A DNA stretch of 63,508 bases, the filler included, from Globobulimina sp. (taxonomy: Eukaryota), in the NCBI GenBank assembly GCA_003354225.1. It is 25 parts of 25 records of this genome, joined end to end, with 100 filler letters (N's around TTAATTAATTAA, not from the genome) between each part and the next. Parts side by side here need not be neighbours in the genome. Positions count along the whole stretch, not along the records: positions 2,548 to 4,993 come from PIVH01006647.1; 24 more parts are not named here. One strand, 5' to 3'. The notes beneath the pieces were generated by a model. That model did not search any database. It worked only from the letters and a program-made list of their open reading frames with translations, and was not told the origin of the DNA. The translations under genes were made by a program, and so were the position numbers. This document shows, piece by piece, positions 2,548 through 63,442 of the stretch. Every line of letters begins with the position of its first letter. The first letter of the stretch is position 1.

Positions 2548-2710
2548 TAATTATACATGATCATACATGATCATACAGTGATCATAAAATCATAAAATCA
2601 TAAATTCGATAATGTAGGATCACATTTTGCCTGGGAAAGGTCGCCCAGACTTCCGTAGTCATACATTATGATCATTTGTATGATTCTTCCTCTTATAGGA
2701 GTTACCACTG

Positions 2711-2890
2711 TAGGATATATTAGGACAGGTTAGAATAGGTTAGGACGGATTAAGACAGGATAGGGTTTATGTTAGATTAGATTAGAATATGATAGGTTAG
2801 AACAGGTTAGGATAGATTGGAAAGGTAGGACATGTTTGGACAAGTTATGACAGGTTAGGATAGATTAGTATGGATTAAGACAGATAGAGT
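2711..2890 (+). repeat. Degenerate 5/10-bp satellite (about AGGTTAGGAY)
   Basis: taggacaggttagaataggttaggacggattaagacaggatagg... periodicity visible over about 180 bp. Confidence 0.8.
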
Positions 2891-3072
2891 AACTCTTTTC
2901 AACAAAAACGTAATCAATTACTACTACTATAACATCTTTTTAATAAAACCACTGTTTAAAAGTCAATTACAGGTACCCCTAGTATGTATATATATGATCA
3001 AAATTTCTATGTACAGATATATGTAGTCATGTGATCATATATAGATATGATCAAAACTCTATGTACATATAT

Positions 3073-4046
3073 ATGTCAACCAATTCATTAAAGCATGGTA
3101 TTGATTCGACAATTAAGAAAGTTGAACATAAAATTACTACCTGAGATGATGTTATTGATAGTAATCCCAATATCCGCTCAACCGAATATGTGTATACACA
3201 AAACGAAGCTCCTTTTGGCATTCATCAAATTGAAAATGGTATTTTTGGTGAGTTAAAAAAGGAAATTGAGGAAGCAACACTTCCGATGGGGCAACTCAAA
3301 GAAGAAACGACTAAAAGATATATTTTTGATACATTTAGTTGTGATATAATGTTTGATAAATTTGGTTTCGTGAAAAGAATTAAGTTTTATTTTTGTGGTG
3401 GTTACACCTATGGTTCAGCAACTGCACAAGGTTTACATGCCTCCAATTTACATGCAGTTATATTAAAATGGTTACCTAAAGTGAGAAATATTATATCAAA
3501 ATATTATGGTGATGATTTATCAAATCATAAGTGCAAATTAATTTTTATAATAAAACAAACAAACCAAGGTTGACAAAAAAACAGTTTAAAAAGTTAAGTA
3601 ATAAACAGAAAAAAGATGCTACAGACAGACAGGAACTATCACATCCACGAAAAAAAAGAAGGCTTAACAATGGTGAAGCAATGGATATAATTCCAAAAGG
3701 TGTAATTGGAATTGCCGCACATAATGATAATGCAGTGAATCCAAGCACTAAAGAATTAATAAAAGATGAATTACATTTTAAAGAGCCTTTCTATATGATA
3801 CATTTAGGGAAACCAGCAAAGATCCGTTTCAGTAATTACAGATGGGCTGAATCTTTCGATGAATCATTAGCATTTGATTTAAAAGATTGCACCATTACAA
3901 AAGTATATTCCTTTGCATTTTGGAATTATATGCATACGGTTCTTTCTACTGATATAGCTGATGACAAAATTTGTATTATTATTCGAGCTGTCCATGACCA
4001 TGTTCAAGATAAATTGAAGTGTTCTCATGAATGTAATAACATTTAA
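3073..4046 (+). pseudogene. ALKBH5: ALKBH5-like Fe(II)/2OG dioxygenase with in-frame TGA (3142-3144) and 1-nt frameshift (about 3530)
   Basis: GIHQI, RIKFYFCGGYTYG (ALKBH5: RNKYFFGEGYTYG), QINFY, GIAAHND (HxD), YMHTV (distal His) and KICIIIR (ALKBH5: RAVIILR) occur in correct order across ORFs 3190-3573 and 3531-4046. Confidence 0.75.
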
Positions 4047-4047
4047 A

Positions 4048-4865
4048 AACATGTAATAGGGGGCAACAGAGTTGCATTTTGGGGCGATAGACCCAGAGGC
4101 AAGATAGTCACAGAGGCAAGAGCCCAGGGTGCAAGAGGCACGATTACAAGATGAATGGTGATTTCATATTAAACGATATTTTTGAAAAAAATGGGAAAAA
4201 AAATCAAGAAAAAAAAATTTAGGAAAAATGTCTTAGTGAAAAATTTCTTAGTAAAAAATTTCTTAGTGAAAAACTTCTTAGTGAAAAACTTTTTAGTGAA
4301 AAATTTCTTAGTAAAAATTTCTTAGTTAAAAACTTTCTTAGTGAAAAACTTCTTTAATGAATAGTAAAAAAAAAAGTAACAAACTTTATTTTTTTAAAAA
4401 AAGTAGTATATAGTACTAGTACTTTATTTTCTTCTTTTATTTTTTTTTATTTTTTTAAAAAAAGTAGTATATAGTACTAGTACTACTACTATATTCATCA
4501 AAATTGAAATTAACATCGAATAAGGGTCTATCGCCCCAATTATCTCGCAATTCCGTAGATTAGAATACCGCAAAACCGCAGTACTAAATATTATAATTAT
4601 GCACATGTCATTGAGACGGTTATTTCATTTATTTGTAGCATCATTACGTATATTATTTATATATTTTTTAGGTATTAGGCAGCTGTTATCTATGGCCTTC
4701 GTAAATTAGTTATGGCAGTTATTTTATTTATGACATTATATATTTTTCTGCAATTTCGCAATTTAGACTCTTGCACCCTGGGCTCTTGCCTCTGTGTCTA
4801 TCCTGACTCTGGGTCTATCGTCTATCGCCCCAAAATGCAACTCTGTTGCCCCACTATTACATGTT
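4048..4865. mobile_element. Non-autonomous TIR element (MITE-like, about 820 bp) with about 90-bp inverted repeats
   Basis: 4048-4137 (aacatgtaatagggggcaacagagttgcattttggggcgatagaccc...cagggtgcaagag) is the near-perfect reverse complement of 4768-4865. AT-rich non-coding interior with tandem repeats and an internal TIR sub-motif near 4524. Confidence 0.8.
4224..4355 (+). repeat. About 15-bp tandem repeat (aaaaaYttcttagtg) inside the TIR element
   Basis: About 8 copies read directly; a separate 35-bp direct repeat lies at about 4389-4423 and 4450-4485. Confidence 0.8.
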
Positions 4866-5224
4866 ATACTAAAGAAATAATCTAATAAATACATATTCAA
4901 AATGCAATTTCATTGATATTGAAAAAGAAATTATAAAAGAGATCGAAACGAGGGAATGGAATAAAAGAGGTTTTAAAAATGAAATAGATGTTTNNNNNNN
5001 NNNNNNNNNNNNNNNNNNNNNNNNNNNNNNNNNNNNNTTAATTAATTAANNNNNNNNNNNNNNNNNNNNNNNNNNNNNNNNNNNNNNNNNNNNCCTTCTT
5101 TAACTAAACCATTCTTATTTAAAAATTTTGCTAAGGCGACACGATAAAGTGGTATTAACTGGCCATTTGAAAATATGCCTGCCGTCCGTTATCATGCCTT
5201 CCTTGCCTGGATTCTGGGAGTTGA

Positions 5225-5896: not shown

Positions 5897-6215
5897 ATGT
5901 ATCATTTATTATTTTTTTGAATTATTATTGGTTTTTCGATACGGTTTCACTTTTTTTTGTTGTGGTAATGTATTGTTTTTTTGCTTCTTTCGTTTATATT
6001 TTTATAAACATTTTTCGTTTTTTTTTGTATGTGATTTTGTAGAATCAAAACGCACCTCAAATATCATAGATTCATTATGACATTGTACATTGCATCAAAT
6101 AAGCGATTGATTCGATGGAATATAAACCAATGATATTTGGGGTGCGTTTGGTCACAGCCGACATTAATTTTCAAATTCTTTATAGTGGGAAGTAGGTTTT
6201 TTGTACGCAAATTGC

Positions 6216-7539
6216 ATGTCAAGTCAGCAAGCTAAGCCAAAGACAGTGAAGCTGTCAGAAGGAAATTACCGTGGGGAATTAGACACATTATATCGGTGGC
6301 TTGGCGGTACATCATCACAAATAGAGCATACACTATCAGAGCTCGAAGACAAAAAATGGATTTGTGTTTGCAAATTAGAAATGCCAAATAATAACATTGT
6401 GTTAGAAACACATTGTACACGCGCCAAGAAAAAAGGTGCAATGAAATATGCATCAAAACTGATGATAAAAGAGATATTAAGGCAACCATTACCAATAACA
6501 CTTCTTGTTATCAATGAGGATGGAACAGTCACAACAATACAGCCACAGCAAATAAACAACAATGAATCTAAATTGCACTTGGGTCCAATATACGAATTCG
6601 ATGAAACTAAGGAGGTATTACCACCAAAACCGTCACATATTCCATCATTTATTTCAACTCCTTTCCGTATTGCCTGTCTTGGAAAGGATATGTCTGATAC
6701 AAATATGCCACACTGTTATGCTGCTGCAACAAATGATAAATATGTATCTTGTTTTATATATCATATTAAATATGCATCCGATCCATATAACAGCCCGAAT
6801 GGGGTTATTTTACCAATGAAAATTGATGATAATGATTTAAAGAGCATCAAATTCTCAGTATGTGCTGCATGTGTTTATTTTAACTTGTTTGTCACATAAA
6901 AAATATATACAAACTCCAATAAGGTACAAATCAGAAAAGATGAAGAGAAGCAATTAAATCAGTTAATCACTGAGTGGGTGGAGGACGAAAAGAAATTAGC
7001 AGATATTCAGCAATTTGATGAAAAATATCTTCATGACACGCAAATATCGCTGCATTCGATCAAAGCAAAAGGTGATAAGTATGAACATAAATTGAAAGAA
7101 CACTTTTTTGATGTCATTAAACATTGCGATAAATTTATGTTTCGAACGTTGGACCAAAGATCTTCAAAAAACCCTTTGTGTGAAAATAAACATATTGCAC
7201 AAAAAAGATATTATTATATTTGTCCATTAAAAAAAGGTTTTGCTGACAATATTGAAATTGACTATGATTTTATTGATAGAATATATTTGGGTTCGGGAGC
7301 TCTGTTAAATAAAAGATTAAATGCAAAAGAATTTAGAAAGAAATTAACCGCACCATGCAGTTTGAAAAGGGAAATTGTTGAAATACAAAATCCAAAAAAG
7401 AAAAATAAACAAACACAAATTGCTAATTCATATGGTGTTGACAAAAGGAAATTTGACCAAATTCGAGCAAACAGAAACGATAACATTGATGATAAACATA
7501 ACGAGATGGACGATACAGAGACAGTAGTGTCAATTGCCT
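6216..7539 (+). CDS. Dicer-like protein N-terminal part (dsRBD/DUF283-like + platform), 3' truncated; intron 6858-6923
   Basis: dsRBD-fold pattern WICVCKL..TRAKKKGAMKYASKLMIKEI, then HIPSFI, SCFIYHI, NGVILP and YYYICPLK..IEIDYDFIDRI (human Dicer platform: YCVLPLN..DIDFKFMEDI). Phase-0 GTATGT..AAG intron joins the two ORFs. Confidence 0.55.
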
Positions 7540-12731: not shown

Positions 12732-15177
12732 AATAAAAATAAGACGCATCGGTTTCCTCAATCCAATCTCAAGAAATATTTCAAAATATGCACCGCTCAC
12801 TACATCCCACGGCATAATAAATGCTGGGAAATGATCCCGAATTATTTCTTTTTTATTCTTCTTACAATCTCTAATCGCACAAAATCTATCCATTATCCGC
12901 TTTTGCACAATAATAATTTCTAATTTTGGTTGCCATGAATCCAAAATAGAACCAAATTTATCTCTGAAAAAAACAACACACAAAATAACAAAATAACAGC
13001 GGAAAAAAATGAAATCAAACCTCAAATCACGATTTCTTTTCAATTTCTCAATTCCAGATTCCATTCCAACCATTTCTTTACATACAAAAAACGGAATTTG
13101 TGAATCCGAGATTCCATCTCGAAATAAAAAAAGATTTTTTGGCAACCTTTTGGTGCTTTGCCGGCTTAATTGCTGCTGAATAACTTCATAAACCATTTCC
13201 TTCATGGCATCGATGCCAACAATTTCTTCTTTATTTGCATTTAAAAATAATGCAGATCGATGATCGGATAATTTTGGTTCGAAAATATCTCTAAACGAGC
13301 TTAACACTGCGATACTTGGCCTGTTATTTGTTGTCATTTTGGTTGGATGACAAACATCTAAGCCCAAAAACATTGAATGTTCAATATTTAATAGGTTGGA
13401 TACTGCAGTACCTACACCAGGTCGTACGTCATATAATTGATATCCTAATTTTACCACAGCATCAGCCATGGCGCCCCATATTATGTTTCTTCGTTTCTTC
13501 CAATCACAAGTACCAAGGAAATATTCTGCAGAAATAAATTGTGACTTCATTCCATGTTTGATACATAATCGATGTAATCTGCGTTTTAATTCCGATGGTT
13601 TTGATGGATTATTGTCAGTTGGAAGGATTATAATAAATAAGCCATATGCTGCAAATTCATTTAATATAAATTCTAACTCTGATTCTCTCCAAATATCAAT
13701 ACGTTTCTTACCAACTTTGCCAATAACTTTCCATTTGAACTAAATATTTTTATACTCAATATTTTGCATATTATATATCACATGAAAAACATACATTTCT
13801 TTTAATTACATATTTATTAACAAACATATCTAACTCATGTATTTGTTTTGTGTCATCTCCAACCAATAATATTTTTGCAGGTTTTGGTGGTCCATCAATT
13901 ATCCCACCGATATTCCTCCATTCTTTACTAATTGTCTTCTCATCGCATGCTTTATATTTATTATAGCGGTCTTTATATCGGATACTAATCGATGGGATTC
14001 GAAATGCAACCGTTTCGATTGGATATTCATTTATTTTTATCAACGATGCTATAGTTATCCCATTATCCGCACCTTTACATATTCTCCGCTGTTTATCTAC
14101 AATATATTTAACATACTTATGTATATTCCTTAACATGGCATCGTTATCTTTGGACAAATCAATCAAAGCTTGTTTATGCAATGATTTACTGTACTCATCG
14201 TGTGTCGTTAGTTCACGCCATAAACACTGCGGTAAGTGAGTAAAACCTTTAGTATCTTCAATCAAGCCTCGACATTCGGATTTAACTTTTTTTAGATATC
14301 CTTTTCGAATTAGATATTGCTTATGACTCTGTCCACAGCCACTGTTACTATGTTCATCATCGTCGTATTTAATATTCGCAATCTCGATATCTCGATGCGA
14401 ATATAAAACTGTACATTTAGTACCACGCAACCTATCACGATTTGCTCTTTTCATTTCTTGGTGAATAGATTCAGCACAGATTAATTTATTAACATTTGAT
14501 ATCTTGATAGATAACCTATTTGCGGTTAGGTTGACTTTGACATTGATGCCTCGAATAACACCAATATTACTTTTTGAATCATTAGGATATGCGTTCGGAT
14601 ATACTGCTTCAACCACACACATCGGGTCATTCAGATTAGTCGGGAAATGGCCTCTGATCGGAAACTGTTTGATATATTTTAATCCGCAACGTTTCAGCGT
14701 CTGATTAATGATAAATTGTAATATTTGTGTGGCTGATATTTCTTTTCCTTTTTCGTCTTTTTCAGTACTTTTTAGTATCGATTTTAATGATTTCCTGCTG
14801 TACATTTCAAATGAAAACTGTAGAAAATACAAACACAAATTATGTATAAGTACGTAATTCGCAAATATATTTATGTGTATATAATTATATGGGTACTAAA
14901 CAATGAAATCTTTACTAAAACTATCGGATAATGTAATTTGCTGCTTTTCCGAATGATTATTGACGGATTTAAAACAAATAACATCCGTATTAATGACTAC
15001 AAATTCACCAAAATGTGCTTTGAGTGTGTTTCCATTTTTTATGGATGTTAGTTGTTTAGTAATATCACTGCGTGAGATTGGGTTCTTTGTATTGTATTTA
15101 TGTGTTGCTTTCGTATGATATGCGATAATATGAATATTATTTAGATTAGGTATATGCAATGGATATGTATTGGTAAT
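12732..15177 (-). CDS. Argonaute/Piwi family protein (N-L1-PAZ-L2-MID-PIWI), both ends truncated; introns 14818-14901, 13740-13794, 12964-13020
   Basis: N-terminal ITNTYPL, PAZ end GFTHLPQC, MID ELKR..KSQFI..VVKLG, PIWI FLGLDVCH, PSIAV, KEEIV, FLFRDGISDSQ, IIVQKR. Three frame-compatible GT-AG introns. Confidence 0.9.
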
Positions 15178-23039: not shown

Positions 23040-25204
23040 GTGGATAAGTTTTTAAGTGATGATGACTCGGACATTGAAGTGGAGGCAGAAACTGCTGATG
23101 AGATAAAAGCAGAAAATCAGTTCAGATGCATGGAGTGTACGTGTTATCTCATATTCTTGATACTATTTACTGGAATGGCTATATTTTCCATCGGTTCTGG
23201 CGACTCAAATTACACCGCAACTACAGCCATCAGGAAACCTGCCATCAACGTCGGTGAGTTCATTGGGTGGAATGATATCAGCGAGAAGACGTTCGATGAT
23301 ATTTCTACTGCGGAGGACATTTACCACTACTTAAGGTACATTATATTGCCACACTATGACAATAATAACGAAAAACAACTAATTTGTACACTTTCAGACA
23401 AATTTTGGTACCGTTTTTAATGTCAGATGGTAAATATGTGAATGGTTCGAACATTTATTACATACAGCATCATGCAGTGTTATTAGGCGGCATTAGAATG
23501 AGACAAATCAGACAAAAAGCATTGCAGTGTAATGATGTGAGTCACTTTAATGACTCAGATTGTTATGAACAGGATGAAATTGATAGGGATGTTGTGCATT
23601 TTTATAATGCGTTGGATGATAATATAACATATGAATATGTTGATAGCTCCGTGTTATTAGATCAGCGATATCAGGGAAAATTCAATAGTTATCCAGGCGG
23701 CGGGTATATACACGACTTGCCATTAGATTTGAGTGAGAGCTTGGATATCATAGACATGTTAGAGGAGTTTGACTGGATTGATGCTGCTACGTTATGTTTG
23801 ACAGTCGATTTCACGATGTATAATCCCTCAAAGTCATTGCACACCGTCGCGCGGCTAATATTTGAGATGCCCACTTCCGGCATATTCGCCATGGATGAAA
23901 TAAAGACGTGGAAATTTGATAGGTATTCAGGCGAAACTACGGGATTTGTGTTGTTTGTGATACATGTTATTTTTATGATGTTTGTGTGTGTGATCAGCGG
24001 TATTTTTATCATTGATATTTATAGGAATTACTGTGATGAACGGAAAGCAAAAAGCTTTTGGACGCAATGGAGAATAATGGATATTATGATTTTATTCATA
24101 TTTTATGTTACAATCGCTTTGTTTATACATAATGAAAGTTATCAGAAAGCATTGATTGATATATATAGATATCAAGAGCCATATCAATCGTTTCGTAGAT
24201 TGCAAGCGTTGAGGTATTGTGTATTATGATCTGTGACATTTTTGTGTGTTGATATGTGAACATAATATATTTAGTTTGATGGAAGCATATTGTTTTGCGA
24301 TAAATGGGTTTCTTTTATGGGTCAAATTATTTAAATACTTAGCATTTCATCCAAAATTTAAATTTTTATTTTATATGTTACAGCGTGGATTGCAGGACAT
24401 TGTCATGTTTATTGTGATATTATTTGTGTTTTATTTGGCCTTTGCTCTAAGTGGTTTTCTCATATTTTCCAGTGACGTGGCTGCGTATCGATCGTATGGA
24501 TTATCTGTGGTCTCTATGAATTTATACATGTTGACAGAAATGAATTATTCTGATTTGATGGCTTCTTCTCGAATGTTTGGTTCCTTTTATTACTTTTCAT
24601 GGCTAATCTGGATGACATTTATTTTGATGAATGTATTCATTGCTATTTTAATTGATTCTTACTCCAAAACACAGGTTGAAATCGAGTTAGACGGCGCAAA
24701 TGCGATACGTTTCAGTTATGTAACATTTGCAATGTTGTATTTCTCCAAAATCAGAAAATATAAACGTTTTTTGTGTGAAATCCAAATATAAATGTTTTTG
24801 TGTTCCATATAGACGTATTTGAGAAAGGCAGAGAATATGCGAAAAAATTAAAATTTGCTCAGTTAATGTCTCGGTTTGAAGCAATTGATGAAGATGGTGA
24901 TGACAATGTGGATGTGGGTGAAATTGCAAAAGCATTGAAAATTAGTCACGAAGATGCAAAGAGAGTAATGATTAAATATGATAATGATGGAAATGGTGTT
25001 TTAGATCGTAAAGAATTTGAAAAATTAAAACAGAAATTAGTGAGAGATCAAATGGAACAGAAACCGGAGTATCGACAGTTAAAAAAACATGAAAATTTAA
25101 AAGAACAATTTGATGATATGAAAGATTTAATGAATGCGATGTTACAAATTGATCCTTCTGGGAGAAGAGCATTGAAAGCAACTCAAGGTTTAAAACGAAA
25201 TTAA
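23040..25204 (+). CDS. PKD2: Polycystin-2 (PKD2/TRPP)-like cation channel with C-terminal EF-hands; introns 23336-23397, 24214-24274, 24715-24812
   Basis: LLGGIRMRQIR, YPGGGY, WIDAAT..DFTMYNP, LWVKLFKYL, FILMNVFIAILIDSY; EF-hands DEDGDDNVDVGE and DNDGNGVLDRKE. Confidence 0.88.
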
Positions 25205-25999: not shown

Positions 26000-27234
26000 T
26001 CATATATTTCGCTTCAAAACAGTTGATTTATGATCATCAATGTTCTTATTTTTTATGTCAAATTTCAACACTTTCCCAACACAAAATGTAACAATCTCTT
26101 CAATACAGTTATGATCCAATATATCCATTAACAAATCAGCAAGAAATGGTTTCATTTCATTATATTGCATAACAATTGAATGAACACAGGAAACACAAAA
26201 AACTTGTTCGTCAACATCAGCACATGAAAATATAAAATCATATCTACATATTTCACATCTACATATATCACAGGTATAACCTTCACATTTACCATCCAAT
26301 ACATCCTCTAAATCTGTCACAGTGTATGTCTCCGAATCAAAATCATATCCAAAATGTGTAGCAACATAATCTTTCCATGCATTCCCATAATACAAATCAC
26401 CTCCATCCAAAATGCAATGTAACCGATAATTATATTCTGGACAATATAAAAACTCATAAATATGTGTTGCTATTAAGTGACTTAAATAGAAAAAATCATT
26501 TGTTACATGTTCCTCTTCAATGAGATCCAATATATTATAATAAAAACGTGCCAAATAATGTGCCAATTCAAGGAAAAAGTCAATTCTTTCTTCAACATTG
26601 GTCCGTAATATTAGTTCAATATGGGCAGGATTTCTGTTCGTAATATCAAGCAAATGTTCGCGATGAGTCGGAAATCTTAATACTTGGCATGCTGGAATTG
26701 TAACAATATCCAGTTTTTCATCCATTTTAATTTTAATCATTTCTGTACTTTCATTCACTTCCAATATATACTGCCATTTGTAAGTGGTTTATTGCCCAAT
26801 TTATATTGAATATGGTCACCGATTTTATACTGTGTTTCCATTAAAATCGAAGGGATATTTGTTGTATAATTTTTAGAAGTATTATTGGAACATTCTGTAT
26901 ATTCGTTATCATCATCTTGGTCGAAAACGAACGTTTTCATTTCTAACTTATATTCCATTGAATATGGAAATAAAAATAATGGAACTTTAACAGAAAATGT
27001 TCTGTGTTGATTGATAAATCCAATATTGAATGGGATTGCTTTCCATGCATCAATTGAACAACAGTCATAATAAATGTATACATATGCGTTATTATTTTGT
27101 AATTGGAATTTGAATGAGAAAATAAAGCCAAATTCTAGCTCACCATCATCAACGTCATCCAAGTTTACAATTTCAATTTCCATAATTCCATTAACTGCAT
27201 CAGAATTTTGCAAAATTGGTTGTGGTAAAGACAT
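26000..27234 (-). pseudogene. Hypothetical protein (FN3-like, barrel, Cys-rich ZZ-like C-terminus) split by a frameshift at about 26765
   Basis: ORFs 26755-27234 and 26000-26764 fuse (NGSI-LEVNEST) if one TA is removed from a TATATAT run; C-terminal CDICRC..FSC..FCVSC. Confidence 0.55.
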
Positions 27235-27292
27235 CCTTTTATCCTTGTTTGAAATCCAAAATATTTATTCTGTCAAAAAAACTTTTTATACC

Positions 27293-33350: not shown

Positions 33351-34780
33351 ATGGGCGACGCAATTTCAAGAGACGAAAAGAAAGAAACGGAAACAGAACC
33401 AGAAACCTATGAAGAGTTCAAATATAATATACCGAAATTGTCAGAAGATGAGTTAAAAGAGTTTCGCAAAGAAGTTGTTGATGTTTACAAACATGAATGC
33501 AAATTTGAATTAAATGCTGATGGCAATTCAGTAAGTTTTTATCCAGCACCTCATGTAAAAGAAAGTGAATATGGTAAAGATACATTTGATGCTGAATTAT
33601 TATGTGAATCACAATTAATTAAAGGCAATGTAGATAAATTAGAAGGGATAAATGATTGGAATGAAAAAATAATATTAGAAGATGGCATATGTAGTTTCAT
33701 CACTGTTTGTTGTAAAGCATGGACTCAACATTATCCATTACGTATATCCCCTGCAAATATATTATTATTAATATTACAAAATGTTGCCATTCACGTTGAT
33801 AAAAACAGTGAAAAATTAAGGTAACGTGTTATCTCTTAAAAGTTGATGTTAATCACAATATTAATATTTGTGTTTTTTTTATGTATATTTATGCAGAAAT
33901 AAATATGTTACACATGAGAAAAAACAGAAATTAAAAGTAACGCGAATCGATGTTGGATGGGTGATGGGTTCGCGTGATAATGATTGGAGCGGTGTGATAG
34001 AAGAATTTTGTCAGCAAATTGACAAAAATACTGTAAATGATACAGTTAAATTGATGGAATCCGACTTTACGTGTTCAACCATTGTGGATCGAATAAGTAA
34101 TAAAATTACAATTATGGATATTTGCAAGAATTATTTTGAATATTATGGATATTCTGGCTTTGCATGCGGTTTTCCAAAAGTTACGTTTCTGTATACTGTA
34201 CGCAATTAAATATTGCAATATTATGTTTTTAAAGATTACGTTGGATGGAACCAAATCTGATTGGATAAAATTAAGAAAAAAATGTGAAAAAATATTGACC
34301 ACAAAAGTAGATAAACGTTTTGGACAAAAATGGAGTTTATCGTTGTTACCAATTTTAGACAGATTTATTGCTGTTTATGACGGTGATATTGACTGTGTAT
34401 TTTGGAATGCAATGATTAAAAAAACAGAGAGGCAATTCATGGGAAGTGGGCCATCGACACCTGAGAAATATTGGGGTTGGATCAATGTATTTTTTCCGTA
34501 TATTCAAGGGTATAAAGGTGTATTTGAAGAGAATTCAGATTGTTTTGCAGTGTATAAAATGTGTGATAGTTTAACACGGTTTGGTTTGGGTGGTAATAAA
34601 TGCGATGTATATCCAACGGGTTTATCATCAGCTCCTGTAATATGGAAAGATATTAATTCAGGAAAAGAATATGACTTAAAATTTTATTCTGGATTTATGG
34701 GTTATAAACAATGTACAAAATCGTTTGAATTATCGCCTGCTGTTTCGTGGTTTATCGGCTATTCTGAAGATAAAAAATGA
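33351..34780 (+). CDS. DUF4419 family protein; introns 33821-33896, 34180-34234
   Basis: AWTQHYPLRISP, HVDKNSEKLR/KYVTHE, DFTCST, MDICKNYFEY..CGFPK/ITLDGTKSDW, GWINVFFPY, PTGLSSAPV, SGFMG. Confidence 0.85.
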
Positions 34781-35003
34781 TTTCACAAATTACCGTATCG
34801 CGAGCAGATAAAAACGCGTTGTTGTAATTATCAGCTTTTTATGTGTCATCTATTTATAATCATTATTTTGACATTACTTATTTTTTCATGTCACAACTAT
34901 TGACCTAATTTTCATTGTGGTGATCGGCTTTCAACTTTTGCTGCACATCTCCAGTCAATCCACAGTTTTTTTATCAAAGTTTTATCATTTCTACGTTAAA
35001 AAT

Positions 35004-35539
35004 ATGAATAGAGCTTTGACAAAGATTGTATTTGCACCCAATGCGTTCAAAGAGTGTTTATCAGCAACACAAGCATGCGAAGCCATGCAAATAGGCATTG
35101 ATAAAGCATTTAATAGCAACCAAATGTTCAAAACAATACCATATGAAACAGTGCATATTCCATTGGCAGATGGAGGTGATGGAACAATGAATGTATTAAT
35201 TGAAAACAACAATGGAGATATAAAAATAATCAATGTTCAAGATCCATTGGGTCGTCCAATCGATGCTAAATATGGTATATTTTGTGGAGCAAATGATACA
35301 TTCAAGACAGCTGTCATTGAAATGGCCCAATGTTCAGGAATATGGCGAATGGCCCAACATGAAACAAATCCATTATTCACACATACACTTCGTACTGGAC
35401 AATGCATATTGCACGCAATAAATAACAATACCAATATTGGTCGCATCCTGTTAATGCTTGGTGGCTCCGCCACAAATGATGCTGGCTTTGGTATTGCCAA
35501 TGCCTTTGGTATCAAATTCGAATATGATTGCAATGAAAC
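35004..35539 (+). CDS. glxK: Glycerate kinase (GlxK/GarK family), 3' truncated
   Basis: KIVFAPNAFKECLSA, PLADGGDGT, DPLGRPI, AVIEMAQCSG, LGGSATNDAGFG. Confidence 0.9.
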
Positions 35540-40727: not shown

Positions 40728-42390
40728 TCTCCAGCAATCAATATTGTGCAATAATTTTTCATCTCTTGCACAATCCAACACGATAACATTACCTCGTAAC
40801 ACTAACCAAGTCCAAGGATTAGCGGAATATGCATTGGATTTCCTATCCTCACCGTCAGATAAAATGAGTAAAATAGATCCGTCTGTCTTAGATCGTGTGG
40901 AAATGTTCCATACAGATTCTGTATTATGTGGCTTGTCCGCCTTATCATTAAATTGCAATGCACCAAATGTACTACGCGATGAAGCATTAAACCATTACTC
41001 CGTAAGTCATGGCAGTGGCGCCACAGTATTCGGATCGACACAGTTAGTGCACTCAGAAAAGGCCGTAGTAGCAAATTCGTGCGCAGTCAGAGAATGGGAC
41101 AGCAATGGAACCGTTTTCGGTTATAATGACAGATTAGGATTGAAATTCCAAGCAGGCGAGTTTGGCCATAACGACTATTATCCAGTTATTATCGCCGCAG
41201 CACAGTTACAGAAAGATGCCGGCGTAAAAACGATATTAGGCATGCTGTTACATGACGAGATACGGGGCAGATTATGTGAAGTATTCTCGTTAAAATCATA
41301 CAAGATTGACCATGTTGTGCATGGTGCAATCGCCACCGCAGTGGTTTACGGCACAATGATTGGAGCCACCATTGACGAGATCGAAAGTGCAGTCGGTATG
41401 CTCATAGCACATTATATCCCCTTCAGAGCCATCCGTGCTGGCCACCAACTATCAGACTCCAAAGGTGCGTCTGCCGCGATTTCGTCAGAAGTGGCTATTT
41501 TGAGTGTACATCGCAGTATGAATGGATTTGTTGGACCAAAGGATATCTTTCGAAATCCACAGAGTGTTTTTAGACTATTCGAGCCGACTGAAAATGATAA
41601 TTTCTCGCCATTTGAGATTAATTTAGGTATTGATGGCAACGATTTTAGTGTCATGGGCATGCATTTTAAATTAGGTTTATATGAGCATCAATCGGCGGGA
41701 GCTATCCAAGCGTTGATCGACGCGTTGTTGAGTGCGCCGGAAATAATTGGGAGTGGCGCTGTGGAGGACATTGCTGATATTTCAATCAAAATATACGAGC
41801 CTGCATTTGGTATTATTGGTGACCCAGCAAAGCGAAATCCGACAACGCGACAATCTGCGGACCATTCAATGGTTTATATTATTGCTTCGCATTTAAAAAA
41901 AGCATTTGATTTGGGGTACGATGCGATTGCCGCAATTGGGAATAATACGGATATGTGGAAAGCGATTATGTTATTACCATTGGACTATGATAACAATGCA
42001 TTGCATGATGCGATGACCAGGGAGTTAATGAATAAAATACAATTTGAATATGGTGGGATTGAATTCGACAATAATTATCCAAAGGGCATTCCTACGAAAT
42101 TGTCGATTAATACGAATTCCGGTGTAAATATAGAGAGTGATTTGGTTATGTTCCCATCTGGACACGCTCGGAATAGTGAGGCGGATTTAAAAGCTATATT
42201 GGCGCATAAATGGTGCAATATGGCTGCGATTGCGGTCGGTGATTATGAAAACATCTCCGGTGATATTGACGGTAATAAATCTGTGCAACACATTTTGCAG
42301 AAATTGTCAAATTTAAAAGGGAAATCTGTGCAAGAAATTCATGATTTGTATAATTTGCCGGTTAATATTACTAAGAAATACACATTATAA
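40728..42390 (+). CDS. prpD: 2-methylcitrate dehydratase (MmgE/PrpD family), 5' partial
   Basis: AVREWDSNGT, GEFGHND, IDHVVHG, AIRAGHQLSDSKG, FKLGLYEHQSAG, PTTRQSADHS, PSGHARN. Confidence 0.92.
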
Positions 42391-56369: not shown

Positions 56370-58206
56370 ATGGCGTATCCAGGACAAAAATGGAACCAAC
56401 AGCAACAGCAACCACCACCGCAACAAATACAACAGCAGATATCACAAAATGCCCAACAAATTGCAGCTAATATGCAACAACAACCTCAAGTTCGATATGT
56501 ACAACAACCACCACCGCCACAACAGCAATATGGACAACCGCAAGTACAATATGTTCAACAAGGACAACCGCAACAACCCGTTCAATACGTACAACAGGGA
56601 CAAGGACAACAACCGCAACAGGTTCGGTATGTACAACAACCACCACCCCAGCAAGTACAATATGGACAACCTCCACCGCAACAAGTACAGTATGCGCAAC
56701 AACCTCAACAACCACAATATGCGCAACAGCCACAATATGGACAGCCTCAACCAGTTCAATATCGACAGGTCTGCCATACATATATTCGACTTTCGTTTGA
56801 AGTTTGAACCAAATCCCTACGCAAAATCGCAAAAAATGCCTTGTAATTTTCCTACTCAGCCTCAACAAGTTCAATACGTGCAACAAGGACAACAGCCCCA
56901 AGTCCAATATGCGCACTCAGCCCCAAGCGCTCCAGCACAAGGCGGTGCTTATGCCCCGCAACAAGTGGTACGAAAAGCCGGTCCTCCCTCTTATGCCTCC
57001 CATCAACAACCACAAAAGAAAAATATCTATGAACAAGCTGACGAGAAATTAAATAAAAACAAAAATAACAACAATTACAAGGGTGGTGGTGGCGGTGGAG
57101 GTGACACTTGGGAACAACCTAAACGCGGTGCCAAAGGTACCTGTCATGTTCATCCCAACTTCAATGACCAAGAAGCCATAAATGCTTCCAAAGTTAAGTG
57201 TTTTGCATATATATCCTTGCACAGTTATATATAAATAATATATGACAAGGAACTACGTAAAGCAATGAAAGGAATGGGCTGTGATAAGAAGAAAGTGGCG
57301 GAAGTGACCGGTAGATACAATGCAGCCCAACGCGCCGTGATTCGTAATGCCTTTCGTACCATCGATCAGGTGATGTTTGGCAAAGGAAAGGAGCGCAATT
57401 TATTACGTGACTTGAAATCCGAATTAGGTGGATCTTACGAGAAATTAGCAGTTGCGTGTTATGAGGACTTAGCTGAGTTTGACGCGAGGCTGTGTTTGAA
57501 CGCCATGGCTGGCATGGGGTTCAATTCTGCGTTGTTGATTGAGGTGGTCTGTACGCGGACGAATGCGCAAATTAGTGCGATGAAGTCGGCCTGGACCACG
57601 TCGCTGAGGAAGCAAAAGTCGCTGATTGACTGTGTGAGGGACGAAACGAAGAAGTTAATGTCCAGCAATCATTTCCAACAGTTGATGTTGACCATATTGG
57701 AAGGCAACAGACCCCGCAATCAAACAGTCAATGATCAACAGGTTGAGACAGATGCGGAAACATTGAATAGATTTATAAAACAAGAGAAAAAATCAAATTC
57801 GAAAAGCAAGTTTATAGAGATTTATACGAATAGATCGTGGGCTCACATTGGCGCATTGTCTGAGAAATTTAGTGATGTTTCGAAGAAATATACTTTGGAG
57901 GCAGCGATAAAGAAAACATTTAGTGATGGCAGTGATACCTCGCAGGCGTTACGAGTAATGACTAAATTCTGTGCGTCGCCGTATGATTATTGGGCGGAGA
58001 AATTGAGGAAATCGATGAAAGGGGCGGGTACGAAGGATAATGATCTCATTCGCATCATTGTGACGCGCTGTGAAATTGATATGTTGCAAGTTAAGAATAT
58101 ATTTGGGCAGAGATATGGTAATGGCAAAACACTTAAGAATTGGATTGAAGATGATGTGTCTGGCTCATATTGCAGGTTATTGGTTAAATTATGTGGCTAT
58201 GATTAA
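56370..58206 (+). CDS. Annexin with long Q/P/Y/G-rich N-terminus; introns 56769-56859, 57193-57249
   Basis: Four annexin repeats: LRKAMKGMGCD..DLKSELGG, AMAGMG..LIEVVCTR, DAETL..RSWAHI, LRKSMKGAGTKD..LIRIIVTRCEID..DVSGSY. Confidence 0.93.
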
Positions 58207-61066: not shown

Positions 61067-63442
61067 GATCGAAAATAAAAAAGACTGGAACACTTTTATT
61101 CAGTACGTAAAGAACAACCAACCAAAACCATCAAACAGCAACAAACCAAATCCAATCCATGTAACCCTACATGTCATCATTGACAATGAACAAAATCACA
61201 GCTACGACCCAGAATACCCCTCATTCCAAAAATGCTACAAAAACCCCCTCACTCTCATCTATCAACGGTATCATATTTCTTTGCGAATGTGCGCCTTGCT
61301 CAAATTTCCTTATTTTTCTGTTAATCCATCCAATAACATTCAGACCGCCTCCACCGCCGTACAAACCGCAACAAGCACCCACACCGCCACAGCAATCCTA
61401 TGCCTATCCGCCACCATCTTATCCCATACATCAACCACCTTATCCACCTGCAATATACCCACCAAACCCATACACAAACCCGCCGTATTACGCCTACCCA
61501 CAATCCCATTATCCCCTGACCCCACAGACCCAAATAGCACCGCCAGCCCCTATACACACTACAAATGCAATTACAGCACATACCAGCAATGGCATTAAAA
61601 GGCGATTCGATGTCGCTGCCAATGTCAATGGGGACTGCCTGAATGAACCAGCGATTAAGAAACGGAGACTAAATGACCCAATGTCAGCACCCGTATCAGT
61701 CCCGGCACCCACACCGACCCCACTCGCTCCACTCGCACCTGTGACGGGGTACACTGTGCAACCAATGCCCTCTGCGCCGCCTCCATCGGATTTATTGGAT
61801 GCCAATCCCTATGGCATCGTGCATATGAATGGATTCGTATGGTGTGATGCATGTAATCGATGGTTTGAAATACATTGCTTTGATTCTCATCTGTTAAGTA
61901 ATACTTGTTTCGTTATTTTATGTGCTTTTTGATGATATAATGCGACCACGCGACGGTCTTATGATATATTTACTGATTAAAACCGCATTGAGCACTGATC
62001 CCACGCAATATGAGCTTATTTCTTTTTATATTTCATTGCAATGTTTGACGTATAAATTTATATAAACAGACAAGGGAAGAAACACAAGAAGAACATTGAC
62101 GCCTTTTCCTTTCGAAAAGTACTGAAACATTGGCAAAAAATCCGAACCAAAGTAGTCGATGATGTGACGAAATGCAGTTTAGTATCAAAAAATATCTTTT
62201 GACCGAGAACCAACAATCTGAACATGCCACATTTTGCATTTTATTTTTGTGTTCATATTGCAAAACGTTTCAAAAATTATAACTACAACACAGATATCCA
62301 AGAATTGTCCATGGATAATAACTTATGGTATGCTCAGATATGCCTCTCCTGTCTATCCGAAGTGCATTACTCTTCGTGGCACCAACATGTGACCGGCCAA
62401 GTGCACCAAAACAACTTCGCCAAATGTCCCCGCACCGTGACTGTCAAACGGCAAATACCGCCCGGAAACGAAGGCAGCTCTGAAATCCCCACCTTATTTT
62501 CCGAGAAATACTTCCTCCAAATCTCAAATTACGTGCCGGGCTCTAAAATATTAGTGCTCGGCGAACAAGATTTCTCCTATTCTTTAGGTACGCATTCCCC
62601 ACCTTTCCCCCTTCCAAATCCCTCCATCTTTGCCTTACTCACAAAAAGCGGTTTGCACCATCCTGCAAAGCGGAGACAACTTGGTAGGCACTTCGTATCT
62701 GGGCGCCTTTGATCCGAATTGCAAGGAACCAGAGGAGCACCCCGCAGACGACGGCGTTCGTGCCAATTATCACCGCGTCACATTGCCTTCGCACAACGGC
62801 CAATTGCAGCAAAACCTGCACTTATTAGCCCAGTATCGGGCGCGCACTGCGCACAGCATCGACGGTACCAAGTTATTGGAGTGTTTATCCGCCGCCGCGC
62901 CCAAAGTGTACTGCCGTCCCTTCGACATCATAGTGTTCCCATTCCCGCGCGCCTCGTTGAAGCGCGGTCTGGATTTCCGGAATTCGACGCTGATTCAGGG
63001 CTTTTTCAGCGAGATCCGCACGCACAGAGCGCAATTATTGTACCCTTTGTCGCAGATTCAAATGATTGTTCTGGACAATCAGTTCAAGGAATGGGACGTG
63101 GCCAACATCGCCAAGGAGAACGGATGGACCTTGAAATGGCGCTGTTGCATCAACTTTGCCTCGTTGCCGCTGTATCAGCCGCGAGAGCTAAGCGGCAAAG
63201 CATGGAATCCCAAGACGGCGCGTTTGTTGGTGTTTTTGTGGGACACTGAGTTTGAGAAACAGGTGGAGCTGAAATTGGATGCGTTGAATGAGATGAATGA
63301 CTTGGCGCTGTTGCCGGACGAAGCGATGAAAGTTACGAAACAAGCAAAGATATTGGATGCCTATCATGCGCAGGGGATTCGACAGTATCAGGATCCGAGT
63401 TTGACGCGGCTGGCTGCGCCGCCTTCCTCTCTGCAACGATGA
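61067..63442 (+). CDS. Pro-rich, zinc-finger and BMT5-like (DUF2431) rRNA methyltransferase-domain protein, 5' partial; introns 61268-61343, about 61898-62293, 62588-62648
   Basis: U1-like fingers WCDAC..HL and CLSC..WHQHVTGQVH; DUF2431 motifs ILVLGEQDFSYSL, GTSY, IDGTKL, FDIIVFPFP, LIQGFF. Confidence 0.78.

Follow-up and report, generated by a model that had tools for sequence, protein, structure and literature searches.

A probably disrupted gene copy of a small, very divergent ALKBH5-like dioxygenase family in repeat-rich DNA of Globobulimina sp.

ALKBH5 and AlkB as points of comparison

The nearest described counterpart of the family reported here appears to be ALKBH5 of animals (human and zebrafish; PDB entries 4nj4, 7v4g and 4npm), which was the only PDB family matched by the profile of the family alignment and the best match in both structure searches, with identities of 13-20% in the structural alignments. 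The spacing R-x-K-x6-Y-x-Y-G is identical in ALKBH5 and in the family, and the NxY, HxD, His and Rx5R motifs are collinear. C267 of ALKBH5, which forms a pair with Cys230 in flip3, is matched by a Cys after the second His in the related proteins P0003 and P0005, by Ala in P0004 and by Thr in the gene copy under study (hereafter the window copy; the window is the whole stretch of 63,508 bases that was analysed), and R277 of ALKBH5 is Lys in the window copy. The motifs DNP, FDxPIY, D[SE]TQ and AxWN as well as the Cys/His-rich N-termini of P0001 and P0003 are particular to the family and set it apart from ALKBH5. ALKBH5 has 8 residues between NxY and HxD; this distance is 20-22 residues in P0003, P0004 and P0005 and 57 residues in the window copy, about 35 more than in these relatives.

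The R130A/E, K132R and Y139A variants of ALKBH5 are reported as inactive, and Lys132 together with Tyr139 was proposed as the proton shuttle for direct demethylation, the active-site residues Arg130, Lys132 and Tyr139 serving between them this shuttle and the binding of substrate (Kaur 2022). According to the description of Tetrahymena DMT3 (TtALKBH5), this enzyme of the ALKBH5 clade demethylates DNA 6mA and has an Asn at the first Arg of Rx5R, yet still works genetically (Niu 2026, PMC12974511). The same account ties ALKBH5-clade enzymes to the pathway of the MT-A70 genes AMT1, AMT6 and AMT7 and describes unicellular ALKBH5 homologues as longer than those of animals, with an AlkB-like domain that is detected as two pieces (Niu 2026, PMC12974511), which would fit insertions inside the domain. 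As far as the published description allows the two to be likened, the window copy resembles DMT3 and the unicellular ALKBH5 subclade in that the first Arg of Rx5R is likewise replaced (Asn in DMT3, Lys in the window copy), and it differs in that the AlkB-like domain of DMT3 is recognised by InterPro, whereas the family of the window copy is unseen by Pfam.

Bacterial AlkB (PF13532) was related to the family by three lines of comparison: its NxY and HxD were paired with those of the family in hhalign, language-model features indicated PF13532 clusters, and the AlkB chain 3khb_A matched the P0004 model at Z 6.7. When the PDB was searched by HMMER with the family profile, ALKBH5 was retrieved but no AlkB. 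In E. coli AlkB, GYLYS is present and the R-x-K-x6-Y arrangement is lacking.

Gene structure and lesions

The window consists of 25 contigs of 2447 down to 2442 nt, ordered by length and joined by N44-TTAATTAATTAA-N44 linkers, and the gene lies on the second of them (2548-4993, 2446 nt). Since the window is a chain of separate contigs, the true context of the gene is limited to 2548-4993, and the apparent neighbours across the window are an artefact of small contigs being chained. The host is an AT-rich eukaryote with few introns; its 14-3-3 protein, which scores about equally against animal and plant counterparts, suits a microbial eukaryote better than it does an animal. The features of the gene-bearing contig are listed in Table 1.

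Table 1. Coordinates of the gene, its motifs, its lesions and the adjoining repeats, counted along the window
Feature	Coordinates	Strand	Basis or remark
Short tandem arrays of 10-nt and 8-nt units at the contig start	2553-2604	.	
Degenerate satellite, 10-nt unit (TTAGGACAGG-like), about 18 copies	2711-2885	.	
Copies of a 52-53-nt satellite unit, reaching into the ATG at 3073	2958-3076	.	extreme abundance in run X1
5' remnant, frame 1; ATG at 3073 within the last satellite unit	3073-3141	+	
In-frame TGA within the P0001-aligned stretch	3142-3144	+	
N-terminal dioxygenase half, frame 1 (ORF1 listed as 3190-3573)	3145-3531	+	69% identity to P0001
RIKFYFCGGYTYG = R-x-K-x6-Y-x-Y-G, spacing as in ALKBH5 R130/K132/Y139	3376-3414	+	alignment
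Frameshift site; frame 1 ends DDLSNHK, frame 3 resumes VQINFY	3529-3533	+	
C-terminal half, frame 3 (ORF2); stop 4044-4046	3531-4046	+	
NxY (NFY)	3540-3548	+	aligned with relatives
57-residue Lys/Arg-rich stretch separating NxY (from its Tyr) and HxD (to its first His)	3549-3719	+	
PRKKRRL, inside the 57-residue Lys/Arg-rich stretch	3645-3665	+	
HxD (HND), Fe(II) triad	3720-3728	+	aligned with relatives, AlkB and ALKBH5
Second His, Fe(II) triad	3933-3935	+	aligned with relatives, AlkB and ALKBH5
K-x5-R, Lys replacing the first Arg of relatives	3966-3986	+	
MITE-like non-coding element, 818 bp, terminal inverted repeats	4048-4865	.	
Unique 3' flank up to the contig end	4866-4993	.	X1 contig depth 13.6

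The two open reading frames ORF1 and ORF2, which lie in different frames, are by sequence comparison the halves of one gene, as the initial annotation had proposed. ORF1 matched P0001 (248 aa, NCBI) with 69% identity (E 4.4e-49), and ORF2 matched P0003, P0004 and P0005 (E 2.5e-7 to 1.1e-4) in an exhaustive HMMER search of 1.84 billion representative proteins; P0003 (426 aa) matched ORF1 and ORF2 in order. A weak similarity of the 5' remnant to P0001 starts at 3082. All catalytic residues are kept in the window copy, namely R-x-K-x6-Y, NxY, HxD, the second His and K-x5-R. The motif for 2-oxoglutarate is NxY plus R-x5-R in P0003, P0004 and P0005, and NFY plus K-x5-R in the window copy. NxY, HxD, the second His and the Lys in place of the first 2-oxoglutarate-binding Arg are situated where the initial annotation had placed them, and the basic insert that it had described between NxY and HxD is likewise present, with PRKKRRL inside it.

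Contrary to what had been claimed at first, the core is not complete but is interrupted by the in-frame TGA (3142-3144) and by a frameshift, and its N-terminal part is missing. Each of the two lesions, the TGA (3142) as well as the frameshift (about 3530), falls within a stretch that aligns with P0001. P0001 reads DDLSEHNSVQINFY in a single frame and the window copy splits it over two, which places the frameshift at 3529-3533. Residues 1-73 of P0001 and about 170 residues of P0003 are without counterpart in the window copy, and the Cys/His-rich N-terminal region of the relatives is replaced by the 52-53-nt satellite. Among the public sequencing runs listed, the stretch occurs in one, X1, and in no RNA run; a contig of 1153 nt from X1 spans 3038-4105 with zero listed differences within 3122-4023; X1 is possibly the source data of the assembly, so this agreement is no independent confirmation of the lesions. 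A protein from this locus was absent in a set of 5.8 billion proteins.

Only two lesions occur in about 324 codons, and ORF2 is open over 171 codons in DNA of 29% GC, for which our own arithmetic gives a random stop expectation of about 8% of codons. The small number of lesions, the long ORF2 and the retention of all catalytic residues indicate that either the decay is recent or the lesions are errors.

Several ways of reading through the lesions were considered and rejected. A 38-nt GT..AG intron (3531-3568) joins the two frames, but at the cost of the conserved VQINFY; besides, the three introns observed elsewhere in the window are longer. These three are all GT..AG, measure about 57-76 nt and have the termini GTATTG...TTTAG, GTATGT...TTTAG and GTAACG...TGCAG. 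With a 131-nt GT..AG intron (3569-3699), frame 1 would lead into frame 3, but NxY would again be lost. The third candidate, a 93-nt in-frame GT..AG intron (3569-3661) that removes the basic insert, has the donor GTTGAC and an A-rich acceptor, unlike the window introns. Other contigs of the window carry frames of 643, 590, 558, 553 and 538 codons that are open under the standard code, so that TGA is no common sense codon here; TGA as a sense codon, or recoding of the ciliate type, was rejected in view of these frames. Recoding at the frameshift was rejected as well: the shift required is +2 or -1, and there is no stop codon at the site.

Assignment to the AlkB superfamily and extent of the family

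Pfam, including PF13532, returned no related family for ORF1, ORF2, P0001, P0003, P0004, P0005 or P0007 at E up to 1 or 10; the only match of P0007 was an unrelated weak one to tRNA-synt_2b (E 0.12). Further comparisons were made with a seven-row family alignment (A2) and a C-terminal profile (A3). Among 177,635 distinct PDB sequences the A2 profile gave five matches at E <= 10, and all five were ALKBH5 (E 0.005-0.015). This match, which is marginal, consists of two collinear blocks, one around R130/K132/Y139 and one over H266...R277-x5-R283. In the first block, RIKFYFCGGYTYG of the window copy and its equivalent in P0001 align to RNKYFFGEGYTYG of ALKBH5, and P0003 has R-D-K-x6-Y at this place. 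The match was lost when single sequences or only one half of the family alignment were used: PDB searches with single sequences or with A3 gave nothing relevant. Comparison of A2 with 78 bacterial AlkB sequences by hhalign gave a score of 30.6-31.7 (P 0.0012-0.0014, probability 17-19%) and paired NxY with NxY and HxD with HxD. The 150 column-shuffled controls all stayed below this level (mean 13.0, maximum 24.1), as did the reversed alignment with 13.4.

Protein language-model features of P0004 pointed to the same superfamily, with PF13532 in 26 of the 30 nearest clusters and a top score of 0.94. For the same protein AlphaFold gave a model with a mean pLDDT of 52.7, in which 48 residues were at 70 or above. 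Of the first 14 rows that Foldseek listed for this model, 13 were ALKBH5 (E 2.5e-4 to 2.7e-3); ALKBH2, NMAD-1, AlkB, ALKBH1 and ALKBH7 came after them. A fold search independent of Foldseek over 48,161 chains placed human ALKBH5 (4nj4_A) on top, with Z 8.2 and an rmsd of 3.5 A over 138 residues, as the sole chain at Z of at least 8. NMAD-1, ALKBH6, Ofd2, ALKBH3, AlkB and FTO followed at Z 6.5-7.2, and the lead of ALKBH5 over NMAD-1 and ALKBH6 is exactly 1.0 Z, the tool's edge of a tie. Full-length P0003 was modelled from a seven-sequence alignment with a mean pLDDT of 40.0, and Foldseek with this model found nothing at E <= 0.001 and ALKBH5 chains at E 0.4-1. With models of such low mean confidence, the double-stranded beta-helix of AlkB proteins is a candidate fold for the family.

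Profile, fold and language-model evidence all speak well for an AlkB-superfamily placement, ALKBH5 being the probable nearest member. Of the initial assignment as ALKBH5-type, the superfamily was thus borne out by these three kinds of evidence and the proximity to ALKBH5 is likely, and Pfam gave it no match. Because the spacing of R-x-K-x6-Y is shared with the functional residues of ALKBH5, the label "ALKBH5-like member of the AlkB superfamily" can be accepted, while membership of the ALKBH5 clade itself is a possibility.

The family is small. The HMMER search with ORF2 gave five matches, of which three were true relatives and two were tandem-repeat artefacts (P0002 and P0006). The profile search contributed only P0007, and its repetition at E up to 10 gave nothing more. 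Judged by sequence similarity, the family comprises six sequences including the window copy; searches of 1.84 billion representative proteins and of 5.8 billion clustered ones brought up only the five relatives. P0001 is diverged and paralogue-like, and the other four relatives are distant. DNP, FDxPIY, D[SE]TQ and AxWN are the family's own motifs, and Cys/His-rich N-termini are found in P0001 and P0003. For P0003 an N-terminal PHD finger was considered and not adopted: it is a language-model lead only (0.92; that domain family occurs in one of the ten best matches) and is unseen by Pfam. Searches of the IMG/VR viral contigs and of JGI metagenome contigs yielded no relatives, tblastn of P0004 against phage records gave a single irrelevant match, and PHROGs gave weak matches only, to families of unknown function at E >= 0.006.

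Copy number, rival readings and proposed function

The satellite arrays upstream of the gene and the inverted-repeat element beginning two bases past its stop codon are present as initially described. Aligned over 98 columns, the two inverted repeats (4048-4137 and 4865-4768) show 88.8% identity and share a 33-nt core without mismatch; the 818-bp element which they delimit contains a 15-nt tandem array (4219-4354). No clear target-site duplication was found at this element. The other open frames of the contig 2548-4993 gave no domain match; since they match no family, the contig carries no transposase. In run X1, where contig depth is no formal copy number, the gene was covered at a likeness of at least 85% by one contig only, with a depth of 10.4, and the contigs on the unique 3' flank had depths of 11-13.6. 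The summed X1 depth on the inverted repeat was about 917, about 90 times that of the gene, and the summed word depth on the satellite was 276,032 in the bin 2958-3039 and 88,562 in the bin 3040-3121. In two further runs from this sample, X2 and X3, the gene had no cover, and no second copy of the gene was found in the other 24 contigs of the window. The gene looks single-copy between high-copy repeats.

Taken together, the locus is probably a pseudogene of recent origin, or at any rate a disrupted copy, in a small, very divergent ALKBH5-like Fe(II)/2-oxoglutarate dioxygenase family, and the lesions suggest that this copy has lost its function. It appears extremely unlikely that the AlkB/ALKBH5 similarity merely reflects short motifs that happen to be so arranged in an orphan protein family of other descent. 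Such a reading would account for the silence of Pfam, for the silence of the PDB towards single sequences and towards the C-terminal profile alone, for an hhalign probability of just 17-19% and for the low confidence of the AlphaFold models, but four methods converge on one family and on the same residue equivalences, and the hhalign score was beaten by 0 of the 150 shuffles. We consider it rather unlikely, though less so, that the gene is live, both lesions being errors of a thin, fragmented assembly and the product being a short-N-terminus ALKBH5-like dioxygenase which starts at ATG 3073 and has a nuclear-localisation-like basic loop. ORF2 and the frame of ORF1 are open over 171 and 142 codons despite the stop-rich DNA, the catalytic residues are all kept, and the basic insert keeps the frame; the loss of a single base beside a short A run could explain the frameshift, the X1 depth is only about 10, and a Lys in place of the first Rx5R Arg would not necessarily abolish activity, as judged from the Asn described for Tetrahymena DMT3 (Niu 2026, PMC12974511). 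A live gene nevertheless needs two separate lesions to be errors, while the X1 contig lists no difference over 3122-4023 and the N-terminal region of P0001 and P0003 is missing, with satellite in its stead. Moreover, the window copy deviates at 11 of the 25 columns that are invariant in P0003, P0004, P0005 and P0007, among them the DNP proline, the FD aspartate, TQ and three glycines.

The initial annotation had proposed a multicopy adenine demethylase, borne by a transposon or virus-like element and countering host silencing. Dioxygenases of mobile elements are known from the AlkB domains of plant RNA viruses and from the TET/JBP genes in fungal transposons, and the sole likeness of the present locus to them is a nucleic-acid dioxygenase near repeats; here the gene lies outside the element, no transposase is present and the depth looks single-copy. 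The gene does lie in repeat-rich DNA and adjoins an element with terminal inverted repeats, and the three relatives P0001, P0003 and P0007 are on record on contigs of 1428, 2046 and 1997 nt. Assemblies tend to break at repeats, so that these short contigs are at best a hint. The inverted repeats, for their part, bracket 4048-4865 only and leave the gene, which ends at 4046, outside; the 818-bp element has no open frame that matches a family. The gene depth of 10.4 equals that of the unique flank, the window holds no further copy, no relative turned up in IMG/VR or JGI metagenome contigs, and the entire family numbers six sequences with the window copy included. Neither the multicopy nor the element-borne part of the proposal withstood these comparisons, and we regard it as very unlikely. 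As far as these data tell the gene is single-copy, which the initial annotation had itself named as evidence against its proposal. The locus itself is probably ordinary genomic decay within repeat-rich DNA.

Returning to the preferred reading of a disrupted copy, the window copy would have lost its N-terminal region beside a satellite array, and a nonsense codon as well as a frameshift would have arisen in it; its NxY-HxD loop has a Lys-rich expansion, and a MITE-like element adjoins its stop codon. In intact relatives such as P0003, HxD...H would bind Fe(II) and NxY plus Rx5R would bind 2-oxoglutarate, and the reaction would be the oxidation of N6-methyladenine in either DNA or RNA. Present as well is the Lys/Tyr pair which ALKBH5 uses for the direct release of formaldehyde. 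As DMT3 is described as acting on DNA 6mA, DNA 6mA is a reasonable guess for a protist enzyme, and as the same description gives DMT3 an Asn at the first Arg of Rx5R, a Lys at this position need not be disabling. A wider reading, which we hold to be improbable, takes the six sequences as a Pfam-invisible lineage of ALKBH5-like enzymes of microbial eukaryotes with an enlarged NxY-HxD hairpin and, in the full-length members, a Cys/His-rich N-terminus, which would demethylate DNA 6mA in chromatin in the manner of DMT3; the window copy, which has the nuclear-localisation-like basic loop, would then still be made, the lesions being errors or bypassed, and would work in repeat-rich chromatin.

The kind of dioxygenase, the AlkB/ALKBH5 type, is already known; the family is a very divergent and rare representative of it. 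Ciliate enzymes of the ALKBH5 clade erase DNA 6mA (Niu 2026, PMC12974511), and this family may bear on the spread and variety of such erasers among other microbial eukaryotes. As the ALKBH5 catalytic signature is kept but Pfam is blind to it, standard annotation would miss the family in surveys of the 6mA machinery, and for surveys of 6mA erasers a rare, Pfam-invisible family is of modest interest. Since the window copy looks dead, it is of value as a pointer to intact relatives.

The window as a whole had no match in Rfam. The other contigs carry ordinary eukaryotic genes, among them those for Piwi, a protein kinase, a 14-3-3 protein, Pex2/12, a polycystin channel, kinesin, a serine carboxypeptidase, annexin, a TLDc protein and a RING protein. 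The 14-3-3 protein of the window scored similarly against animal and plant 14-3-3 proteins (161-174 bits).

Composition of the window and possible foreign genes

The window (1-63508) is made up of 25 contigs that are unrelated to one another; each is 2442-2447 nt long, and they are arranged in length order and joined by N44-TTAATTAATTAA-N44 linkers. Arguments from "neighbourhood" that reach across a linker are therefore void. Features found on the individual contigs are listed in the table.

Features of the window contigs
Feature	Position	Strand	Remark
Satellite	2958-3121		52-53-nt unit
Non-coding element, 818 bp	4048-4865		terminal inverted repeats of 90-98 nt
Open-frame pair	6186-7538		TAA at 6897
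Piwi gene intron, about 57 nt	near 13740-13800	minus	resembles the 24214-24274 intron
Polycystin-type channel gene	23369-24788		split by 61-nt GT..AG intron, 24214-24274
Two long open frames on one contig	26003-27264	minus	different frames, ~30-nt overlap
DUF4419 gene intron, about 76 nt	near 33820-33900		resembles the 24214-24274 intron
Glycerate kinase	34872-35537		Pfam Gly_kinase
MmgE/PrpD protein	40729-42387		
Open-frame pair	56371-58203		TAA at 57232, ahead of annexin core
Open-frame pair	62203-63246		TGA at 62710

The MmgE/PrpD protein and the glycerate kinase, the latter bacterial-type, lie on contigs in an assembly that is eukaryotic in other respects. These could represent transferred genes or contaminant contigs.

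Repeats on the contig of the ALKBH5-like gene

The non-coding element contains an internal 15-nt tandem array of about 9 copies. It belongs to a MITE-like family of some abundance, because in sequencing run X1 its repeats reached a summed depth of roughly 90x the unique level; no clear target-site duplication was seen at the element.

The summed word depth of the 52-53-nt satellite, given for the two bins 2958-3039 and 3040-3121, was 276,032 and 88,562 in X1, compared with ~10 for unique DNA; the values were 650 and 223 in run X3, and about 2 and 0.75 in run X2. All three runs are filed as one sample. The share of the satellite-carrying organism or fraction seems to be very uneven among them.

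Introns and interrupted reading frames

In the polycystin-type channel gene, the Pfam PKD_channel profile runs on past the intron, and similar introns were found in the Piwi and DUF4419 genes. The three open-frame pairs each consist of long frames in the same reading frame, separated by a single stop codon, and the TAA at 6897 lies within a 33-nt GT..AG stretch. Short in-frame introns, broken genes and chance are all possible explanations of these pairs. The overlapping frames on the minus strand, which were without Pfam match, suggest another frameshifted or intron-split gene.

In residues 228-248 of the NCBI protein P0001, which resembles the N-terminal half of the ALKBH5-like window copy, only 8 residues separate the 2-oxoglutarate motif NxY from an H-S-E triplet, and the gene model stops 3 residues past this triplet. 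The P0001 model may be truncated or mis-spliced, at the site where the window copy carries its long insert.
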